Shown here: positions 2,816 through 52,502 of the stretch, in pieces
Numbering within the stretch: the first letter of the stretch is position 1
Layout of the letters: each line of letters starts with the position of its first letter
Assembly (NCBI GenBank): GCA_951406725.2
Contig: OX597831.1
Coordinates: 35,092,001 to 35,156,000, forward strand
Reading direction: 5' to 3'
Origin: Octopus vulgaris
Lineage: Eukaryota
DNA length: 64,000 bases
The notes under the pieces: generated by a model
What the model saw: the letters and a program-made list of their open reading frames with translations, nothing else
Database searches by the model: none
Told to the model about the DNA's origin: nothing
Made by a program: the position numbers and the translations under genes

Positions 2816-2869
2816 TGCCTATATGTATATATATATAAACATATAAGTACATACACATACATACTTACA

Positions 2870-3380
2870 TACACGCGTACATACATACATGCACATAAAT
2901 ACACACGTACATACATACATGCACATAAATACACACGTACATACATACATGCACATAAATACACACGTACATACATACATGCACATAATACACACGTACA
3001 TACATGCACATAAATACACACGTACATACATGCACATAAATACACACATACATACATACATGCACATAAATACACACGTACATACATACATGCACATAAA
3101 TACACACGTACATACATACATGCACATAAATACACATGTACATACATACATGCACATAAATACACACGTACATACATGCACATAAATACACACGTACATA
3201 CATACATGCACATAAATACATACGTACATACATGCACATAAATACATACGTACATACATGCACATAAATACATACGTACATACATACATGCACATAAATG
3301 CACACGTACATACATACATGCACATAAATACATACGTACATACATACATGCACATAAATACATATGTACATACATACATA
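2870..3380. repeat. 26-30 bp minisatellite derived from (CATA)n
   Basis: Tandem units of acatacatacatgcacataaatacacacgt with variable CATA count. Confidence 0.9.
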
Positions 3381-3545
3381 CACACACACCGGCATGCATA
3401 TGTAAACACACACACAGGCACACACACATACACGCATACACGCACACACGCACACACATACACACACACACATACACACATACACACATACATACATACA
3501 TACATACATACATACACGCATACATACATACATACATACATACAT

Positions 3546-4105
3546 AATATAATGATTTGGGATAGAGAAGAGAAACAGTGCACAGTTGTGGAAATTAGCT
3601 GCCCAGCAGATGTTAATATAAAGCTGAAGATCAGTGAAAAAGAGAGAACACCTATTCTGAACTATTGAGAAATTTACAGTTAATATATCCAGATTACAAG
3701 TTCCAATTTATACCTGTAATTATTGGGGCCCTAGGTTATGTAACAACTGCATAAATACCAATCTTGAAAAATTAGGTTTCTCAAAACAAGAAAGAAGATA
3801 GCTAATTCGAAAACTACAGATCCAATCCATCACTGGAACTGTAAAAATCTGTAAAACTTTCCAGAATTTTATCATTGAAATATACATGAGCATGTCTAGA
3901 TATGCAACTATATGCATGAGAATATATACATAAAGCATACACATCTACACATACATACATACATACATACATACATACATACATACATACATACATACAT
4001 ACATACCCTGTTGTTGATGTTGGAATTCCAAAGATGGTACCTTGGATCTTGGTTAGAAACCGGTTCTTTCTCTATTGGCAAGAAATCTTGAAATAAACTG
4101 AATAA
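3546..4105 (+). mobile_element. 3' end of RLE-type (R4/Dong/NeSL-like) non-LTR retrotransposon, copy 1
   Basis: Translates, with frameshifts, to IMIWDREEKQCTVVEISCPAD...IPVIIGALG...LQIQSITGTVKICKTF. A 3' UTR follows, ending aaataaactgaataa; (CATA)n on both sides. Confidence 0.8.
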
Positions 4106-4217
4106 TACATACATACATACATACATAACATACATGCATACATACATGCATACATACATAGATACATACATACATACATACATACATACATACATACATA
4201 CACGCATGCATACATAC

Positions 4218-4736
4218 AAATCAGTTGCCCAGTGAATCAACATTAATTCGAAGATCAATATGAAAGAAGACACCTACACTGAACTATTGAGAAATTTGCC
4301 GCTACTTTACTTGGATTACAAGTACAGATTTATACCTGTAATTATCGGAGCACTTGGATATGTAACCAACTGCCTCAGCACCAATCTTGAGAAATTAAGG
4401 TTCTCAAAAACCAGTGAAGAGAAAACTAATTAGAAGATTACAGATACAAGCCATCAATTGAACTGTCAAAATTTGTAAATCTTTCTCAAGTTTAGCAGTC
4501 AAGTATATAAACTGATGTCTAATCATGCAACAATATGCATGAGAATGCATACATACATAAAACAAAATATACAAATTTGCATATAAGCTAACTCCAGATA
4601 TTGCACACAAATGTATGGTCATGCACAAATCCTTTGCGGATGTTGTTTAAAATTCTAATGAAGGAGCCTTGAATCTAGCTCAGAAACTGACTCTTTTTCC
4701 ATTGGCAAGTAATTTAGAAATAAAACTAAATAATAG
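4218..4736 (+). mobile_element. RLE-type retrotransposon 3' end, copy 2
   Basis: Homologous to 3595-4105 (YTELLRNL...IPVIIGALG); flanked by (CATA)n. Confidence 0.8.
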
Positions 4737-4807
4737 CATGTATATGTACATACATACATACATACATACATACATACATACATACATACATACATACATA
4801 CATACAT

Positions 4808-5277
4808 CTGTCAAATGTAAGCCTAACAGGCCGGATATTGTTGTTAGGAACAGTGGGGCAAAGGTATGTACCATCACAGAGGTCACCTGCCCTGCAGATA
4901 TAAGATATAAATATCTCTTTGAAAATCAAAGAAAAAGAAGATATCTATAGACAACTGCTTTGAAACCTCCGGCTTCTATATCCAGACTATGAATTCATAT
5001 TCATACCAATAATAATTGGAGCACTAAGTTTTGTTGGTAAATGCTTAAAGGAGAATCTGGGTAAACTGAGATTTTCAGAAAGAGAAATTGACTGGTTAAT
5101 TCATGCATTACAAGTACAATCTGTGAGTGGAACAGTAAAAATATGCAAAACTTTTCTCAAGTTCCAAATGTGAGTTTGTCTGCTTTAACTAAATCCCAAA
5201 GATGGAGCCTTGTATCTTTGTTGGAAACCGGCTCCCTCCTCAGTGGAAGATTTATAATAGCTAAAAAAATAGAAGAT
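4808..5277 (+). mobile_element. RLE-type retrotransposon 3' end, copy 3 (diverged subfamily)
   Basis: KCKPNRPDIVVRNSGAKVCTITEVTCPAD contains the RPD...E..P motif of the PD-(D/E)xK nuclease; IPIIIGAL; begins directly after (CATA)n. Confidence 0.8.
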
Positions 5278-5287
5278 ACACACACAC

Positions 5288-5342
<55 letters not shown>

Positions 5343-5869
5343 TACATACGTACATACATACACACATACATACATACATACATACATACATACATACATA
5401 CACACCTGCCTGCCTGCCTACCTACCTGTCTACATGTCTGTCTATATATTCATATACATAGATGATAATTACCTCATCTTGTCAGATGCTGGCCATCACA
5501 CATTGAATGATAGTGAGACATCTATACGTCTCTGGATTTAAGTGACCAACGCTTGTACAAGACTTTTGCCACTCTCTCAGTTGCCATAGTAAATTCCAGT
5601 AACAAACAGCGCAAGATAACTGGTACTATTTTGATTGCAAGTTTTTTGTGAGAGTGTCTTTCTTCTAGAAGAGCTACCTTCCCCACGGCTTTCTTCTAAC
5701 CTTAGGAAATATATTTACAACATAGATGGAAACATGACAGGTATTACCATTCCAGATTAGAATGGACCTGGGAACAATTGTAATTAAGGGATGACTCCAC
5801 TCTCCCCACAGTTTTAGAACACCCAAACTGGAGCCTTACTACTGGATGTAGTTTAATACCATATCCAGG

Positions 5870-6470
5870 ACATACATACACACATACATACATGCATACA
5901 TACATACATGCATACCATTGTACATACATACAAACATACTTACATATAGACACACATACATACATACATACATACATCCCATCATACATACACACATATA
6001 CATACATACATACATACATACATACATACATACATACATCCCATCATGCATACACACATATACATACATACATACATACATACCATTGTACATATATACA
6101 AACATACGTACATATATACACACATACATGCATACATACATACACACATACATACATGCATGCATACATACATACATACATACATACATACATACCATTG
6201 TACATGCAAACAAACATACGTACATATATACACACATACATACATACATACATCCCATCATACATACACACATATACATACATACATACATACACACACA
6301 CACATACATACATACGTACATACACACATATGTATATACCATCATACATACACACATACATGTATACATACATATACACACACATACATACATACATACA
6401 TACATCCCATCATACATACACACACATACATACATACATACTCACACATACATACATACACACACTATAA
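5870..6470. repeat. Compound (CATA)n with higher-order structure
   Basis: Recurring cataccattgtaca and catcccatcata landmarks separated by CATA/CA runs. Confidence 0.8.
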
Positions 6471-6520
6471 ATGATCGCAATATCTGAGACAATAAAAATC
6501 TGCAAGACCTTAAGATTTAA

Positions 6521-6742
6521 CCCTTTAGCATTCAAACTGGCCATATCCAGCGAAAATATTCTATCTGTTTTATTTCAAACTGGTCAGATCTGGTTTATGT
6601 CATCTACCCGATAATTTTCATTCTTAAAATAAACAATCACATCAACAAAATCCCTCTAAGCTACGAGATAATGCATGATTAATTTAAAGCAATATGAATA
6701 AGTAAGCATTAAGCCTGACAGAATAATCTGAGTAGTGAAGGG
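6521..6742. mobile_element. TTAA-flanked MITE (piggyBac-like)
   Basis: ttaa|CCCTTTAGCA ... GAAGGG|ttaa; homologous to 61350-61569. Confidence 0.7.
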
Positions 6743-6969
6743 TTAAAGGATAATGAACAAAATAAGATGCTTTCCTTCCCATCCTCATTACCAAGTGGGT
6801 GGCCAATTAAAATTTACTCTGAATTAAAAAGAGAAAGGGAAGACATACATACATATGTATGTATGTATGTATGTATGCATCCATGCATGTATGTATGCAT
6901 CCATGCATGTATGTATGTATGTATGTATGTATCCATGCATGTATGTATGTATGTATGTATGTATGTATG

Positions 6970-7119
6970 TAGGCGCAAGAGTGGCTGTGTGGTAAGTAGC
7001 TTGCTTACCAACCACATGTTCAAGTGTCTTCTACTATAGCGCCAGGCTGACCAAAGCTTTCTGAGTGGATTTAGTAGACGGAAACTGAAAGAAGCCCACC
7101 ATATATATGTATGTATGTA

Positions 7120-7168
<49 letters not shown>

Positions 7169-7392
7169 ATGTGTGCGTATATGTTTGTGTGTCTGTGTTT
7201 GTCTCCCCAACATCGCTTGACAACCGATGGTGGTGTGTTTACATCCCCGTAACCTAGCAGTTCATCAAAAGAGACTGATAGAATAAGTACTAGGCTTCCA
7301 AAGAATATGTCCTTTGATCGATTTGCTCAATTAAAGGTGGTGCTCTAGCTTGGCCACAGTCAAATGACTGAAACAAATAAAAGAGTAAAGAG
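6970..7392 (+). mobile_element. SINE family A (internal deletion across the B-box)
   Basis: Head aggcgcaagagtggctgtgtggtaag; tail gactgaaacaaataaaagag. Confidence 0.85.
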
Positions 7393-7425
7393 TACATACA
7401 TACATACATACATACATACATACAT

Positions 7426-8275
7426 GCAGCACAGCTGAAGATCATTGAAAAACAGAATACCTACACTGAACTATTGAGAAATCTACAGTTACTCTATCCA
7501 GATTACACGTTCAGGTTTATACCTGTAATTATAGGGGCACTGGGATATGTAACACACTGCCTGAATACCAATCTTGAGAAATTAGGCTTCTCAAAACTAG
7601 AAAGGAGAAAGTTAATTTGAAGACTACAGATCCAGTCCATCACTGGAACTAAAAATCTGTAAAACTTTCCAGAAGTTTATCATTTAAATCATCATCATCA
7701 TCATCATCATCACCATCATCACCATCATCACCACCATCACCACCACCACCACCATCACCACCATCACCACCACCACCACCATCATCATCATTGTTTAACG
7801 TCCGCTTTCCATGCTAGCATGAGTTGGACGATTTGACTGAGGACTGGTGAACCAAATGGCTGCACCAGGCTCCAATCTGATCTGGCAGAGTTTCTACAGT
7901 TGAATGCCCTTCCTAATGCCAACCACTTTGAGAGTGTACTGGGTGCTTTTACGTGCCACCGGCATGAGGGCCAGTCAGGTGGTACAAGTAACAGCCACAC
8001 TCAAATGGTGTTTTTTACGTGCCACCTGCACAGGACCCAGTCCAGTAGCGCTGGCAACAACCTCGCTCGAATGTTTTTTCACGTACCACCGGCACAAGTG
8101 CTAGTTAGGCGATGCTGGTAATGATAAATATATATGAGTATGTCTAGATATGCAACTATATGCATGAGAATACATACATAAAGCAAAACATGCAAATCTG
8201 CACACAACCAGCCAGTCTACCAACCAACCAACCAACCACCCTAATACCCACCCTGTTGTTGATGTTGAAATTCTA
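7426..8275 (+). mobile_element. RLE-type retrotransposon 3' end, copy 4, interrupted at 7689-8121
   Basis: 7426-7688 matches copy 1 coding end; 8122-8275 resumes the copy 1 3' UTR (tgtctagatatgcaactatatgcatgagaa). Confidence 0.8.
7689..8121 (-). mobile_element. (GAT)n-tailed retroposon family C
   Basis: (CAT/CAC)n followed by tttaacgtccgctttccatgc...gatgcccttcctaa motif. Further copies at about 12475-12878 (+), 12973-13270 (-), 22235-22490 (-) and 46715-47130 (-). Confidence 0.75.
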
Positions 8276-12462: not shown

Positions 12463-12847
12463 CCACCACTGTGCTTGAAGAGACCTTTGAGTCAAGTACA
12501 TCAACATCAAAATAAAAATCAAATGGAAATTGTAGTTGTGATACCCAGGCTGGTGGCACGTAAAAAACACCATCCGAACGTGACCGATGCCAGCAACACC
12601 TTGACTGGTGTCCGTGCCGGTGGCACGTAAAAAGCATCAACCGATTGTGAACGTTGCCACCCTCCTCTTGCCCCTGTGCCAGTGATATGTAAAAAGCACC
12701 CACTACACTTATGGAGTGGTTGGTGTTAGGAAGGGCATCCAGCTGTAGAAACACTGCCAGATCAGACTGGAGCCTGGTGCAGCCTCCTCACTTCCCAGAC
12801 CCCAGTCGAACCCTCCAACCGATGCTAGCATGGAAAGCAGATGTTAA

Positions 12848-12879
<32 letters not shown>

Positions 12880-12936: not shown

Positions 12937-14054
12937 CATGTATATATAAGTATCTATCTAGATATATGTATGTCATCATCATCATCGTTTAATGTCTGTT
13001 TTCCATGCTGGCATGAATTGTATGGTTTGACTGAGGATTGGCAAGCGAAAAGACTGTACCAGGCTTCAATCTGATCTGGCAAGGTTTCTACAGCTAGATG
13101 CCCTTCCTAATACCAACCATTCTGAGAGTGTAGTGATACTTTTTACTTGCCATGGGCATGGGAGTCAGTCAGGCGGTACTGGCATTGACTACGCTCAAAT
13201 GGTGCTTTTTACATGCCACCGGCATGAGAGCCAGACAGGCGGCACTGGCATTGGCTACGACAATGACTTCAATTGTGTATATATACATACATATATATAT
13301 ATATATATATACATACATACATACATACATATATATATATATATGCATGCACACACACACATACAAATCTATATACATATATATATATATATGTGTATAT
13401 ATACATGTATATATTTATATCTATCTAGATATATATGTATGTGTATATACGTATATTTATGTATATGAGCACAAACACACACACACATATCACAGACATT
13501 CTTGTAATTTCTGTCTTCCAGATTCATTCACAAGGTATTGGTTACTCTAAATGAATAGTAGAAGATACAATTGCCCCAGGTGTCCCACAGTGGAAGAGAA
13601 CCCAAAATCTACTTAGTTGGAAAGCAAACCTTTTAACTTCGCATCTAATGACCAGGTCTAAAGTACAGAAAAATCCATCTCATGGGAGTTCAGAATGTAT
13701 AAGTAGCCAGGTTATATAACACCACAAGGCATTTTGTCCAGCACGCAAGCACTTCTGCTAATATTTACCAATCATCGACTTAGACCTAGGTCTGTCAGGT
13801 GCCCCAGAACTCAGAAGGCCAGAGCTAAACTCAGTTTCCATAACATATAAGTAACTGAGTTTACAACATTCTCCCATTTCCTGGATAAGGTGCTAGTCCA
13901 TTGCAGGGTTAATTCTCCAGCTGTTGCTGGAACTCATTTACCGCTGAATGGACTGGAGCAACTTGAAATGTTTTGCTCAAGAACACATCACATGGCCCAA
14001 GGTGGGAACTGACATAAGGATCATATGATTGTGAGTGCAACACCCTTTAAAACT

Positions 14055-22112: not shown

Positions 22113-22787
22113 GATCTAAATGCTAAAGGGTTAACTAGTGCATAATACAAATGGTCAATTAGTTAATTGGTTAAGTTATTAACCAATCAAATTACTATAA
22201 AGAATTACGATTGAACCTGTGCATGTAATATCATGATCATCATCATTGAACGTTCACTTTCCATGCTGGCATGGGTTGGACGATTTGACTGAGGACTGAC
22301 AAGCCAGTAGGCTGCACCAGGCTCTAATCTGATCTGGAAAGGTTTCTACAGCTGGATGCCTTTCCTAACACCAACCACTCTGATAATGTAGTGGGTGCTT
22401 TTTACGTGCCACTGGTATGGGGGCCAGTCAGGTGATACTGGCATTGACCACGCTTGACTGGTGCTTCTTATGTGCCACTGGCATAATGATTCTCCCAAGC
22501 CAAAATGATACAAAGAAATACAAAATCAATATTTACAATCTTTGTCCAAGACAGAAAGGATACATATAATATATAGGCATATATGTGTCTGTGTGGTAAG
22601 AGGTTTTCTCCCCAACCATATGGCTCCACATTCAGTCCCACTGTGTGACACCTTGGGTGAGTCTTCTATTATAGTTCCAGGCCGACCAAAGCCTTTCCAG
22701 TGGATTTGGTAGACAAATTAAAAGCAACTCGTCTCTCTCTCTCCCTCCCTCTCTCTTTCTCTCCCTTTCTATATACACATATATATA

Positions 22788-30339: not shown

Positions 30340-30452
30340 CAGGCAGATGTTGTTTGATGTTGAAATTGCAATGAAGGAGCCTTGGATCTCGAATAGGTTA
30401 GAAACTGACTCTTTCCCTATTGGCAAGAAATCTTGAAATAAAACTGAACAAT
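30340..30452 (+). mobile_element. RLE-family 3' UTR fragment
   Basis: Matches 4010-4105 (ccttggatc...ttggcaagaaatcttgaaataaaactgaa). Confidence 0.7.
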
Positions 30453-30469
30453 GATATATATACATATAT

Positions 30470-41885: not shown

Positions 41886-42420
41886 CATCGCTACATATAT
41901 ATATATGTATGTATGTATGTACATATATATATATTGGAGGTTGGTTAGTGAGTAGGGGTCAAATATTTGCTTTGCAGAAATTTCATTTTTGCACAATTAA
42001 GTTGGAAGAATTTTTCTCTCCTTATCCTTTTCCGTATTTCTGTTTTCTGCATCCAATTCCGTTGCATTGCATTACATTGCATTTCAGTTCTTTACTTCTG
42101 TCTCCAGACGTCTATGATGTCAGTCACACAGCATCATCATTAACAGCCATGCTACTCCAGTGCTATCGCCGTTCTTCCGTAGTCTCCCCCCCCACCTTTC
42201 TTTCTTCTTCTTCTTTATATTTCACCGCCGAGGGACTCGGAGGGGTTAGTTGACATTTGAAGAGATGGAACTAGCCACATACTAATACACACTCGCAAAC
42301 ATATATGCATGAGTGTGCGAAGGCGCGCCTGCATATATATGTATTTATAAATATATACATGCATATATCTATGTATATATATATATGTGTGTGTGTGTAT
42401 ATGCATCTATATATGCATAC

Positions 42421-42451
<31 letters not shown>

Positions 42452-42826
42452 CAGAGAAATATATATGCATATATACACTCATATATATATGCACACACAT
42501 TCAATTATTTTTTACATCAGTGAGTCCAAATTTCTGTTTCCACCTTGCTTCCAGGCGTCTTTTTTTTTGTTTTTGAGTGAGCATGTGTGCTGCATGTATG
42601 TAAATGTATGTGTTTATATATGTAAGGGTGTGTATGTGTGGCTATATATTTTCATCCCATATCTACACCTTTCTCCCACGTATAGTCTGAATTAAAAACA
42701 AAATTCTTTAGAAATTATAAAACATTCCAGTTAGACACTAGAATTTGAGAAAGATGAGATGAGAAATAGGATTTTGCGATGTGCATGCTCCTGATGCATA
42801 CGTACATATATATATACATACATATG

Positions 42827-46172: not shown

Positions 46173-46178
<6 letters not shown>

Positions 46179-46442
46179 AAAAACAGAAACAGTTTCTATC
46201 ATAGTGGGCACATTAGGTATGACCAAAAAATAGTCGGACAAGTACATAACAAAAACACCAGTGCTAACAAATATATATAACATACAGAAAATAGCACTAC
46301 TAGGCACTGCACACATCTTACGTAAAACACTTTCTATACAGTAACAATAAGTGCATCACAGCAAACCACAGTACATACCCAAGGCACACAGAGCTGCGCT
46401 CAGTAGTGGAGTGAAAGCACATGATAAAAATAAGACTACTGA
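46173..46442 (+). mobile_element. Dong/R4-like retrotransposon 3' end in (TAA)n
   Basis: SLKTETVSIIVGTLGM...IQKIALLGTAHILRKTL* plus short UTR; (TAA)n on both sides. Confidence 0.85.
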
Positions 46443-47949: not shown

Positions 47950-49140
47950 AAATCAGTTTTGCTGACGTGGGCAGGTCTTCTTAAGAACTTCATATCACCA
48001 GACATCTCAGTCCAATTTCATTTCATCTGTGAGGCCCAACATCCTGAGATTGCTCCTTACCACTTCATCCCACATCTTTGTAGGTCTCCCACTTCCATGG
48101 GTACCATCTACTTTCAGTGATCAGCACTTCTTTATGCAGCTGTCCTCATTCATTCACATGTCCAAATCAATGTAGTCTTCTCTCTTGCATGCTACATTTG
48201 ATTCCTCTTATGCCCAACTTTTCACTCAATACATTTGCACTTTGTCATATATGCGCACTGATGCTGCACATCCAATGGAGCATACCTTCATTTCTTTACA
48301 GTCTATCCATATCTTCTGCATTCATTGCCCATATCTCACTACCATGGAGTATAGCTGTTTGCACACAAGCATCATATAGTCTACTTTTTACTCTGAAAGA
48401 GAGTCTTTCTGTTGCCAACAGAGGTAATAGCTCTGAACTTCCTCCACCCAATTCTTATTATAGAAACAATACTTTCAGAGCATCCTCCACCATTGCTAAT
48501 TTGGTCACCCAGGTAACAGAAACTATCTACAACCTCAAGAGAGCCTCTTGGGCATTTGAGAGAATCTAAGTCCTGTGTGCTCTTAGTGCTTATTGTTCCT
48601 GCACATCTGCCACATACAAAGACTACTTTATCTGTTAATCTACCTGTGATACCACTACACATCTTATGTGTCCATAGTTTACACTGAGTACAGTGAATGG
48701 AATGTCTTCCAACTACTTTCCTAGATATTGAGTAGGGCCATTTATCAGATGGAAAGAGTGTTTTATCTTCATTCTTACTAATAACAACTTTGGTTTTTGC
48801 TAGATTAACTTTAAGGCCCTTTGATTCCAGGTTTTGTTTCCATGCCTGAAATTTCTTCTCCAATTCTACTAAAGATTCTGCAAAAAGAGCAAAGTCATCA
48901 GCATATAGCAGTTCCCACGGGCACCCAGTTTTGAATTCCTTTTTTATGGCCTGGATGACTATAATGAATAAGAGTGGGCTGAGAACTGAGCCCTGGTGAA
49001 CCCCTACCTGAACGCTAAATTCATCACTGTATTCATGACCAACTCTCACCTTACTGACAGCACCACTGTACATGGCTTATACAACTCTAACAAGCCACTC
49101 CTCTTCTCCTAACTTCCTTAGAGACCACCATATAACAGAG
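47950..49140 (-). mobile_element. RTE/RTEX-like LINE RT fragment with Cys-rich (PHD-like) insert
   Basis: ORF 48381..49073: VGVHQGSVLSPLLF, WELLYADD, CTQCKLWTHKMC...CGRC, FCYLG. Confidence 0.9.
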
Positions 49141-51553: not shown

Positions 51554-52028
51554 AGTGATATCACAGGTAGATTAACAGATAAAGTAGTCTTTGTATGTGG
51601 CAGATGTGCAGGAACAATAAGCACTAAGAGCACACAGGACTTAGATTCTCTCAAATGCCCAAGAGGCTCTCTTGAGGTTGTAGGTAGTTTCTGTTACCTA
51701 GGTGACCAAATTAGCAATGGTGGAGGATGCTCTGAAAGTATTGTTTCTATAATAAGAATTGGGTGGAGGAAGTTCAGAGCTATTACCTCTGTTGGCAACA
51801 GAAAGACTCTCTTTCAGAGTAAAAAGTAGACTATATGATGCTTGTGTGCAAACAGCTATACTCCATGGTAGTGAGATATGGGCAATGAATGCAGAAGATA
51901 TGAATAGACTGGAGAGAAATGAAGGTATGCTCCATTAGATGTGCAGCATCAGTGCGCATATATGACAAAGTGCAAATGTATTGAGTGAAAAGTTGGGCAT
52001 AAGAGGAATCAAATGTAGCATGCAAGAG
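51554..52028 (+). mobile_element. Inverted duplicate of LINE segment 48182-48656
   Basis: Reverse complement aligns without gaps over 475 bp, with few mismatches. Confidence 0.92.
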
Positions 52029-52502
52029 TGAAGATGACAGAGTAGGATTTATGGGAGATTTGGCTGCTGTTTCTAACAGATGAAACAGCTGTTCAAATTT
52101 GCTTTTTTGGAACACGTGTTAAGACTAGCAGTGATGTAATAGCACTGCTAACACAGTAGAACATGGTATTGACTTATAAAAACGTTTAATATACTTTGTA
52201 GCATATTATAGTTGCATAATGAAACCCCATGTCCTTACAAGTCATTCATCTCTTTTTGGATTTCTTATCTCACTGAGATTGACTTTTAACTTCAATCCCT
52301 TACGAGGGCTGCTAAAATATATACGAGACCTTTTCTGGAGTTAATTCAATCAGTTTTATTCATTTTCTACTAATCGTTACTCTTCTGTCGATATGTTTTA
52401 CTTAGTAAAGATTAATATTGATTTTGAACATGGCCACCAGTTGACATATTGGGGAAGGGGAAAAGGAGTATAGTCGATAATGTAAACTACAGTATATTAT
52501 TG

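Follow-up and report, generated by a model that had tools for sequence, protein, structure and literature searches.

Apparently dead R4/Dong-like retrotransposons lie in fixed orientation within (ACAT)n microsatellites of Octopus vulgaris

The window analysed here, a stretch of 64,000 nucleotides (nt) of Octopus vulgaris DNA (35092001-35156000 of contig OX597831.1, within the 2.8-Gb assembly GCA_951406725.2; coordinates below are window positions), contains decayed, independent, 5'-truncated 3' ends of retrotransposons of the non-LTR type (LTR, long terminal repeat) that encode a reverse transcriptase (RT), a zinc knuckle and a restriction-like endonuclease (RLE). On the evidence of their sequences and flanks, these fragments and their relatives elsewhere in the genome are very probably dead R4/Dong-like copies with a fixed orientation inside (ACAT)n microsatellites, where sequence-specific target-primed reverse transcription is likely to have placed them. 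A first-pass annotation of the same DNA had proposed an RLE lineage specific for a tetranucleotide repeat; the enriched flanks, fixed strand and independent copies described below make such targeting likely.

Four fragments on the + strand of the window are 3' ends of an RLE-type open reading frame (ORF) and encode broken C-termini of its protein, each with a different ORF start point, and each of these copies 1 to 4 begins directly 3' of an ACAT-type tract (Table 1), as the first-pass annotation had observed. Its proposal of at least two subfamilies with differing truncation points also holds, copies 1, 2 and 4 being assigned to family A and copy 3 to family B. Copy 2 has about 79% identity to copies 1 and 4, and its best matches elsewhere reach about 80%; because the median identity among copies is about 88% in family A and about 91% in family B, copy 2 is either older or a member of another subfamily. 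Copies 1 to 3 lie head to tail with only 60-110 nt of repeat between them, an arrangement that might also arise from one insertion duplicated in tandem, or from a single event in which one RT jumped from RNA to RNA. However, the pairwise identities of copies 1 to 4 are only 66-87%, and therefore they are not tandem duplicates; with two families and different start points also present, a single event has next to no probability and is refuted for the window by the identities. Template jumping may explain some same-family pairs elsewhere.

Copies of families A and B in the window and in loci gathered from elsewhere in the genome were mapped against ten reference pieces taken from natural copies, and 343 raw matches were merged into 215 copies, 211 of which have more than 60 nt of upstream flank and constitute the 5' junction set. 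A 5' junction was scored as positive if an ACAT 12-mer, matching at 11 or more of its 12 positions, ended within -15 to +5 nt, and the background consisted of 6000 random positions drawn from 60 stretches, each of 10 kb, placed on a fixed grid (600 kb). An ACAT tract is present at 127 of the 211 de-duplicated 5' junctions compared to 1.4% of the background (family A, 102/160; family B, 25/51), at 108 of 185 truncated and 19 of 26 full-length 5' ends, and at five of the nine unselected copies in the grid sample. The antisense repeat is found at only 5/211 (background 1.7%), and other repeats are scarce (AT at 5 junctions, AC at 12, AGAT at 1 and AAT at none). The 5' flanks are thus enriched for the repeat above background and the orientation is fixed rather than random, two outcomes on which the earlier proposal depended. 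The signal falls with upstream distance, from 85/210 at -50 nt to 30/209 at -200 nt and 10/182 at -800 nt. After intact 3' ends, an ACAT 8-mer with seven or more matching positions follows in 70/80 copies of family A and 33/37 of family B (103/117 in total; background 6%), and among the 85 3' ends located by motif, 54 have ACAT as the four bases that come first. A third family, C, was first seen in the random grid sample and has 1911 candidates in a search; its junctions, called by a cruder all-against-all comparison, have ACAT in the sense orientation in 17/30 cases and in the antisense orientation in none of the 30.

Elements without any insertion preference might merely accumulate or survive in repeat-rich regions of low constraint, as has been proposed for Waldo-A/B near CA repeats (PMC3812793; this and all later citations are to extracts of the papers), and at -800 nt ACAT does still stand at about fourfold its background. 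Passive retention does not, however, predict the strand bias of 127 to 5, nor a preference for ACAT where AT, AC and AAT repeats are more plentiful. In the grid sample, AT covers 2.65% of the sequence, AC 0.99%, AAT 0.99% and ACAT 0.83%; ACAT ranks first among the four tetranucleotides counted, but, contrary to what had been supposed, it is not the dominant microsatellite of the genome. The same genome provides an internal control in RLE families flanked by (TAA)n. One such Dong-like family is young, with copies 97-99% alike and an open frame of 1136 amino acids (L330), and the 5' junctions of the TAA-flanked family have AAT in 8 of 11 cases and ACAT in none of 11, a reversed pattern that passive retention does not predict and that prevents general repeat richness from explaining the ACAT association. 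Strand bias and the TAA cross-control already largely refute passive retention, which is left with only a very slight probability. The window itself (46177-46441, + strand) also contains a 5'-truncated copy of the Dong-like family with TAA flanks, bordered on either side by (AAT)n. At the grid loci L181, L193, L195, L196 and L212, different TAA-flanked RLE families form head-to-tail stacks in AAT tracts, which parallel those of the ACAT families in ACAT.

The ACAT-associated element consists of one ORF with an RT, a CCHC zinc knuckle and a C-terminal PD-(D/E) RLE. In host copies, matches to the protein P0003 begin near the N-terminus and extend as far as the C-terminus, and the host families have a constant 3' end, variable 5' truncation and no LTRs. 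Single intact ORFs of 1213 and 1172 amino acids are found in two metagenome relatives, L303 and L304, both of which have (ACAT)n at both ends. Pfam recognizes RVT_1 in both ORFs at E 1e-25 and finds no APE (apurinic/apyrimidinic endonuclease) family in L303, L304, P0003 or P0007; residues C936, C939, H948, C953 and D1024 are invariant in 95 alignment rows. The fold predicted for the L304 ORF from the 95-row alignment (mean predicted local distance difference test score, pLDDT, 89; predicted template modelling score 0.82) has R2 structures as its best structural matches (E 3e-36), far above L1 ORF2p. Its N-terminus is predicted to form a three-helix domain (pLDDT 75 when folded alone) for which Myb/SANT domains make up most of the leading structural matches, the best being TRF-type telomere-repeat-binding Myb domains; host family A retains the first part of this domain. 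Pfam finds no zinc-finger family at the N-terminus. In eight loci scanned with Rfam, there is no ribosomal RNA family and no ribozyme family at the 5' end, only repeat-driven microRNA and small nucleolar RNA matches below threshold, and a predicted hairpin in the 5' untranslated region (UTR) has almost no covariation (2/31 pairs).

A search for relatives among longer proteins only produced 115 hits, of which 23 have 35-50% identity over nearly the whole query, and a metagenome scan gave 28 loci, the ends of which were inspected in 11. In addition to L303 and L304, (ACTT)n was found at both ends of L307, at the 5' side of L302 and L305, and at the 3' side of one element represented by L308 and L310. 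A short GGACGTG motif is common to L303, L304 and L307, 20-45 nt inside the 5' end. In a quick, midpoint-rooted IQ-TREE tree of 62 rows, which omits 74 of 92 distant proteins as well as C_L283, L163 and L181, families A, B and C group together (Shimodaira-Hasegawa-like approximate likelihood ratio test, SH-aLRT, 100), and a long-stemmed branch of 29 rows (SH-aLRT 100), 15 of them with unknown flanks, holds these families and every ACAT- or ACTT-flanked row, while three TAA rows fall outside it. A FastTree run with more rows gave the same split between ACAT/ACTT and TAA; in both trees the R4/Dong clade is represented by unnamed proteins and host TAA families as stand-ins, with no named R4, Dong or Rex6 sequence. 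With three host families and metagenome relatives that have ACAT or ACTT flanks, the case for a lineage is stronger than first stated. The ACAT element probably works like Dong and probably belongs to the R4 clade. The chances are about even that these elements constitute an old, undescribed R4/Dong-like sub-lineage specialised for ACWT, with a single-base switch between ACAT and ACTT, beside the TAA-specific Dong-like families.

(TAA)n targets have been reported for Dong, DongAg and DongBg (PMC3812793), and TAA is the target of the R4/Dong clade in most insects, molluscs and cnidarians; members of the clade are reported to have, at the N-terminus, a diverged domain of Myb/SANT-like type and no zinc fingers (PMC7998251). 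The ACAT lineage resembles R4/Dong elements (Bombyx mori Dong, DongAg, DongBg and ostracod Dong1/2) in its combination of RT and RLE and its position inside a microsatellite; its predicted three-helix N-terminus may be of the same kind, the structural match being middling. Unlike Dong, it has host and relative flanks of (ACAT)n or (ACTT)n rather than (TAA)n, with AAT at none of 211 junctions, and unlike the Dong-like TAA families of the same genome, it occupies a long separate branch; P0003 and the intact TAA-family ORF are only 33% identical. Its target overlaps that of the APE-type Waldo elements (WaldoAg1, WaldoAg2 and WaldoFs1), which is ACAY microsatellites (PMC3812793) and so includes ACAT. 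Waldo, which the title of a paper cited in PMC3812793 places in the R1 clade, has an APE endonuclease, whereas that of the ACAT lineage is an RLE at the C-terminus of its single ORF, and AC runs are only weakly present at its junctions (12/211); an ACAT target common to both would be convergent. R2 elements (R2Bm, R2Tg and PlaMe) provide the best structural matches and the source of the mechanism proposed below, but R2 has N-terminal zinc fingers plus Myb and a 28S ribosomal DNA target, whereas the ACAT lineage has no N-terminal zinc finger that could be seen and is flanked by a dispersed repeat. Togen, which targets (TG)n, and the microsatellite-specific HERO families (PMC4640811) are likewise RLE elements with non-TAA microsatellite targets, but their descriptions, as NeSL-related or HERO elements on other repeats, set them apart.

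Dong-R4 elements are reported to be abundant in octopus genomes (PMC13282606, PMC8967140). Extracts of both papers, and a term search of the supplement to the former, name no Dong-R4 target, and extracts of PMC5753468, PMC5035012, PMC13580325 and PMC3124438 name no ACAT or ACTT target for an RLE element. No RLE element on ACAT or ACTT was found in the literature covered; Repbase, Dfam, Kojima and Fujiwara 2004, and Fell et al. 2025 lie beyond it and could contain such families. The suggestion that this target had never been described therefore stands only in part: it appears to be new for an RLE element, but in Waldo an APE element already targets ACAY.

The ACAT sequence might instead be the element's own tail, with the 5' tract made at or after insertion, for example by slippage that expands a short duplicated piece. 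Such an origin would suit the fixed 3' phase, the 3' ends that carry ACAT without a 5' tract (32 of 40 with at least six matches), and the failure to see an empty site. At least three bases match neither tract nor reference in 39% of 100 truncated junctions, compared to 13% in a simulation without copy-specific mutations, and this also agrees with a tail. On the other hand, ACAT at the 5' side of truncated copies is more than a tail alone can explain, and in the tract-length set (52 of 109 two-ended copies, with at least eight matches on both sides) the 5' tract is the longer in 36/52 (p=0.007). The upstream tracts match the length-weighted distribution of genomic tracts, with a median of 42 against 38 for simulated random cuts in grid tracts (p=0.83, a non-significant difference and no proof), whereas the downstream tracts are much shorter than simulated, with a median of 16.5 against 36 (p=1e-4). 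This combination of an upstream match and shorter downstream tracts fits insertion into existing arrays, and fits a need for more repeat upstream of the cut than downstream; because no empty site was found, the pre-existence of the tract rests on the length distribution. Most ACAT tracts in the grid sample (109/118) touch neither family A nor family B, and some upstream tracts are bordered by another copy, neither of which favours a tail. A tail origin is accordingly improbable, though it is the likeliest of the alternatives to targeted insertion. Microhomology at the 5' side is weak (at least 2 nt in 15% of 100 junctions, compared to 9% simulated) and so does not define the junctions.

Several observations weigh against targeted insertion into existing arrays by an R4/Dong-like lineage. 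By the test used, 84 of the 211 5' junctions have no tract, although later deletions probably account for some of these. The copies are mostly best-scoring hits of searches (with queries that lacked any CATA run), the random draw comprises nine copies only, and neighbourhoods are generally ACAT-rich, at 5.5% at -800 nt compared to 1.4%. Among the examined loci, 140 copies were tested for empty sites, sought as insertions into other repeats, without a clean case, and for L159 (family B, with unique flanks) no joint across the element was present in four of 24 listed public runs, only one of the four covering it. Target-site duplications are no more frequent than expected, with 4 non-pure matches in 85 compared to 4.0 in shuffled pairs, a test to which duplication of pure repeat alone is invisible. 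L306, L312, L313 and L314, four of the 11 metagenome loci inspected, have no terminal repeat, and the metagenome contigs mostly end in repeat, so that the true flanks of these relatives are unseen; stopping in repeat would be expected of contigs from a collapsed multi-copy element. Pfam finds no Myb domain at the N-terminus, and the structural match to Myb-like domains (best Z 6.3, root-mean-square deviation 2.5-3.1 over 64-68 residues) is middling, below the tool's clear level.

In R2, N-terminal domains bind the target upstream of the nick, the RLE nicks it, and the freed 3' end pairs with the 3' end of the RNA and primes synthesis (PMC12503042). By analogy, the N-terminal domain of the ACAT element would hold (ACAT)n upstream of the cut and the strand nicked by the RLE would be (ATGT)n; the 3' end released there would likely pair with a few ACAU units at the 3' end of the RNA and prime the cDNA, and ACAU at the RNA end would set the phase. 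Both the unvarying phase of ACAT at the 3' junction and the shortness of the tract downstream agree with this scheme. Since ACAT is left on either side of every insertion, further copies can be added in a head-to-tail row like that of copies 1 to 3.

The first-pass annotation had also suggested that insertions seed new targets, citing a CATA run within the 3' UTR of copy 1. This run is present (Table 1) and is a feature of family A: copies 2 and 4 and other copies in the genome share it, and its length varies. Another copy on the same strand precedes 17/123 upstream tracts compared to 4/118 random tracts (p=0.005), although the order of insertion of stacked copies is not readable; this stacking favours seeding of targets by the elements themselves, but the effect is modest. 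Only 9 of 118 ACAT tracts in the grid sample touch family A or B (family C uncounted), and the elements, which the annotation had suggested could spread the repeat, neither explain the ACAT content of the genome nor are its main source. The internal UTR repeat is the stopping point of 32 of the 160 copies of family A, compared to 10 that stop in the next 102 nt; the stops could be due to internal priming, later deletion between repeats or insertion beyond the flank examined.

DNA searches with copies 1, 3 and 2 gave 4536, 3373 and 2373 first-look candidates, respectively, and the protein search gave 46,837, of which the best 40-150 were scored per search. The nine copies of families A and B in the grid sample extrapolate to roughly 40,000 copies in the genome (Poisson range about 19,000-80,000). 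A full-length natural copy of family A is 3930 nt long (L256). No intact frame for the host families of the ACAT lineage was found among the best 150 hits of each of three protein searches, and the longest open frames of the scored hits are 505-574 amino acids, so the host ACAT families look extinct. Long frames at 44-46% identity that were candidates for intact ACAT copies belong to the TAA family (eight loci checked), and the candidate long copies L027, L028, L006 and L104-L107 are segmental duplicates and were merged. Between the N-terminal domain and the RT, the family A ORF contains a (GTA)n tract of variable length in L142 (about 2428-2580 on the + strand of the locus, translated as poly-Ser) and, on the reverse strand, in L153 and L148. 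Two distant clusters on C1, at 205.6-206.4 Mb and 7.47-7.54 Mb (L222-L240), are segmental duplicates, 90-99% identical, with a 3' end of family A and, after it, a 5' end of the same family.

The 3' UTR of copy 3 is short, differs from that of family A and has no internal repeat. The first seven bases of copy 4 (7426-7432) are not alignable to the reference copies. A fifth UTR fragment, noted earlier near 30340, is placed in Table 1 and has no ACAT tract on its 5' side. A weak match (70%) to the start of the family A 3' UTR at 42379-42497 is below the threshold of the copy table. Two inverted arms of 486 nt (48171-48656 and 51554-52039), 98% complementary and 2897 nt apart, could represent either a young DNA transposon or a pair of retroelements in inverted arrangement.

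Table 1. Retrotransposon fragments, ACAT tracts and associated repeats in the window
Feature	Position	Strand	Remarks
Compound (ACAT)n-type tract, 5' of copy 1	2855-3546	+	
Copy 1, family A	3547-4106	+	Broken RLE C-terminus, 3' UTR and 3' end; 5'-truncated just past PD motif
Internal (ACAT)n run, 3' UTR of copy 1	3949-4006	+	
ACAT tract flanking copy 1 (3' side) and copy 2 (5' side)	about 4107-4217	+	
Copy 2, diverged family A-like	4218-4736	+	
ACAT tract between copies 2 and 3	4747-4807	+	
Copy 3, family B	4808-5276	+	RLE RPDI...EVTCPAD retained
Repeat 3' of copy 3, (AC)n that passes gradually into (ACAT)n	5278-5405	+	
Short interspersed repeat	7118-7389		Ends just 5' of the ACAT tract of copy 4
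ACAT tract, 5' of copy 4	7393-7425	+	
Copy 4, family A	7426-8273	+	Alignable from 7433; interrupted; last ~95 nt absent
Later insertion of another repeat in copy 4, 440 nt	7690-8129		(ATC/ACC)n end; TAAAT at both borders
Further copies of the repeat inserted in copy 4	12549-12879, 12974-13250, 22236-22478		
Fifth fragment, last ~105 nt of family A	30348-30453	+	

Two RLE lineages in one genome probably use different microsatellites. Since related proteins with ACAT, ACTT or TAA borders are available with complete ORFs (L303 and L304 for ACAT, L305 and L307, which span the whole protein, for ACTT, and L330 for TAA), the question of the target is directly testable. If the ACWT sub-lineage is real, intact ORFs of both specificities would be natural pairs for locating the determinant, for which the Myb-like domain, the RLE and the 3' end of the RNA are candidates. 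Such comparisons would bear on what sets the targets of RLE retrotransposons, and how these targets change, outside R2.

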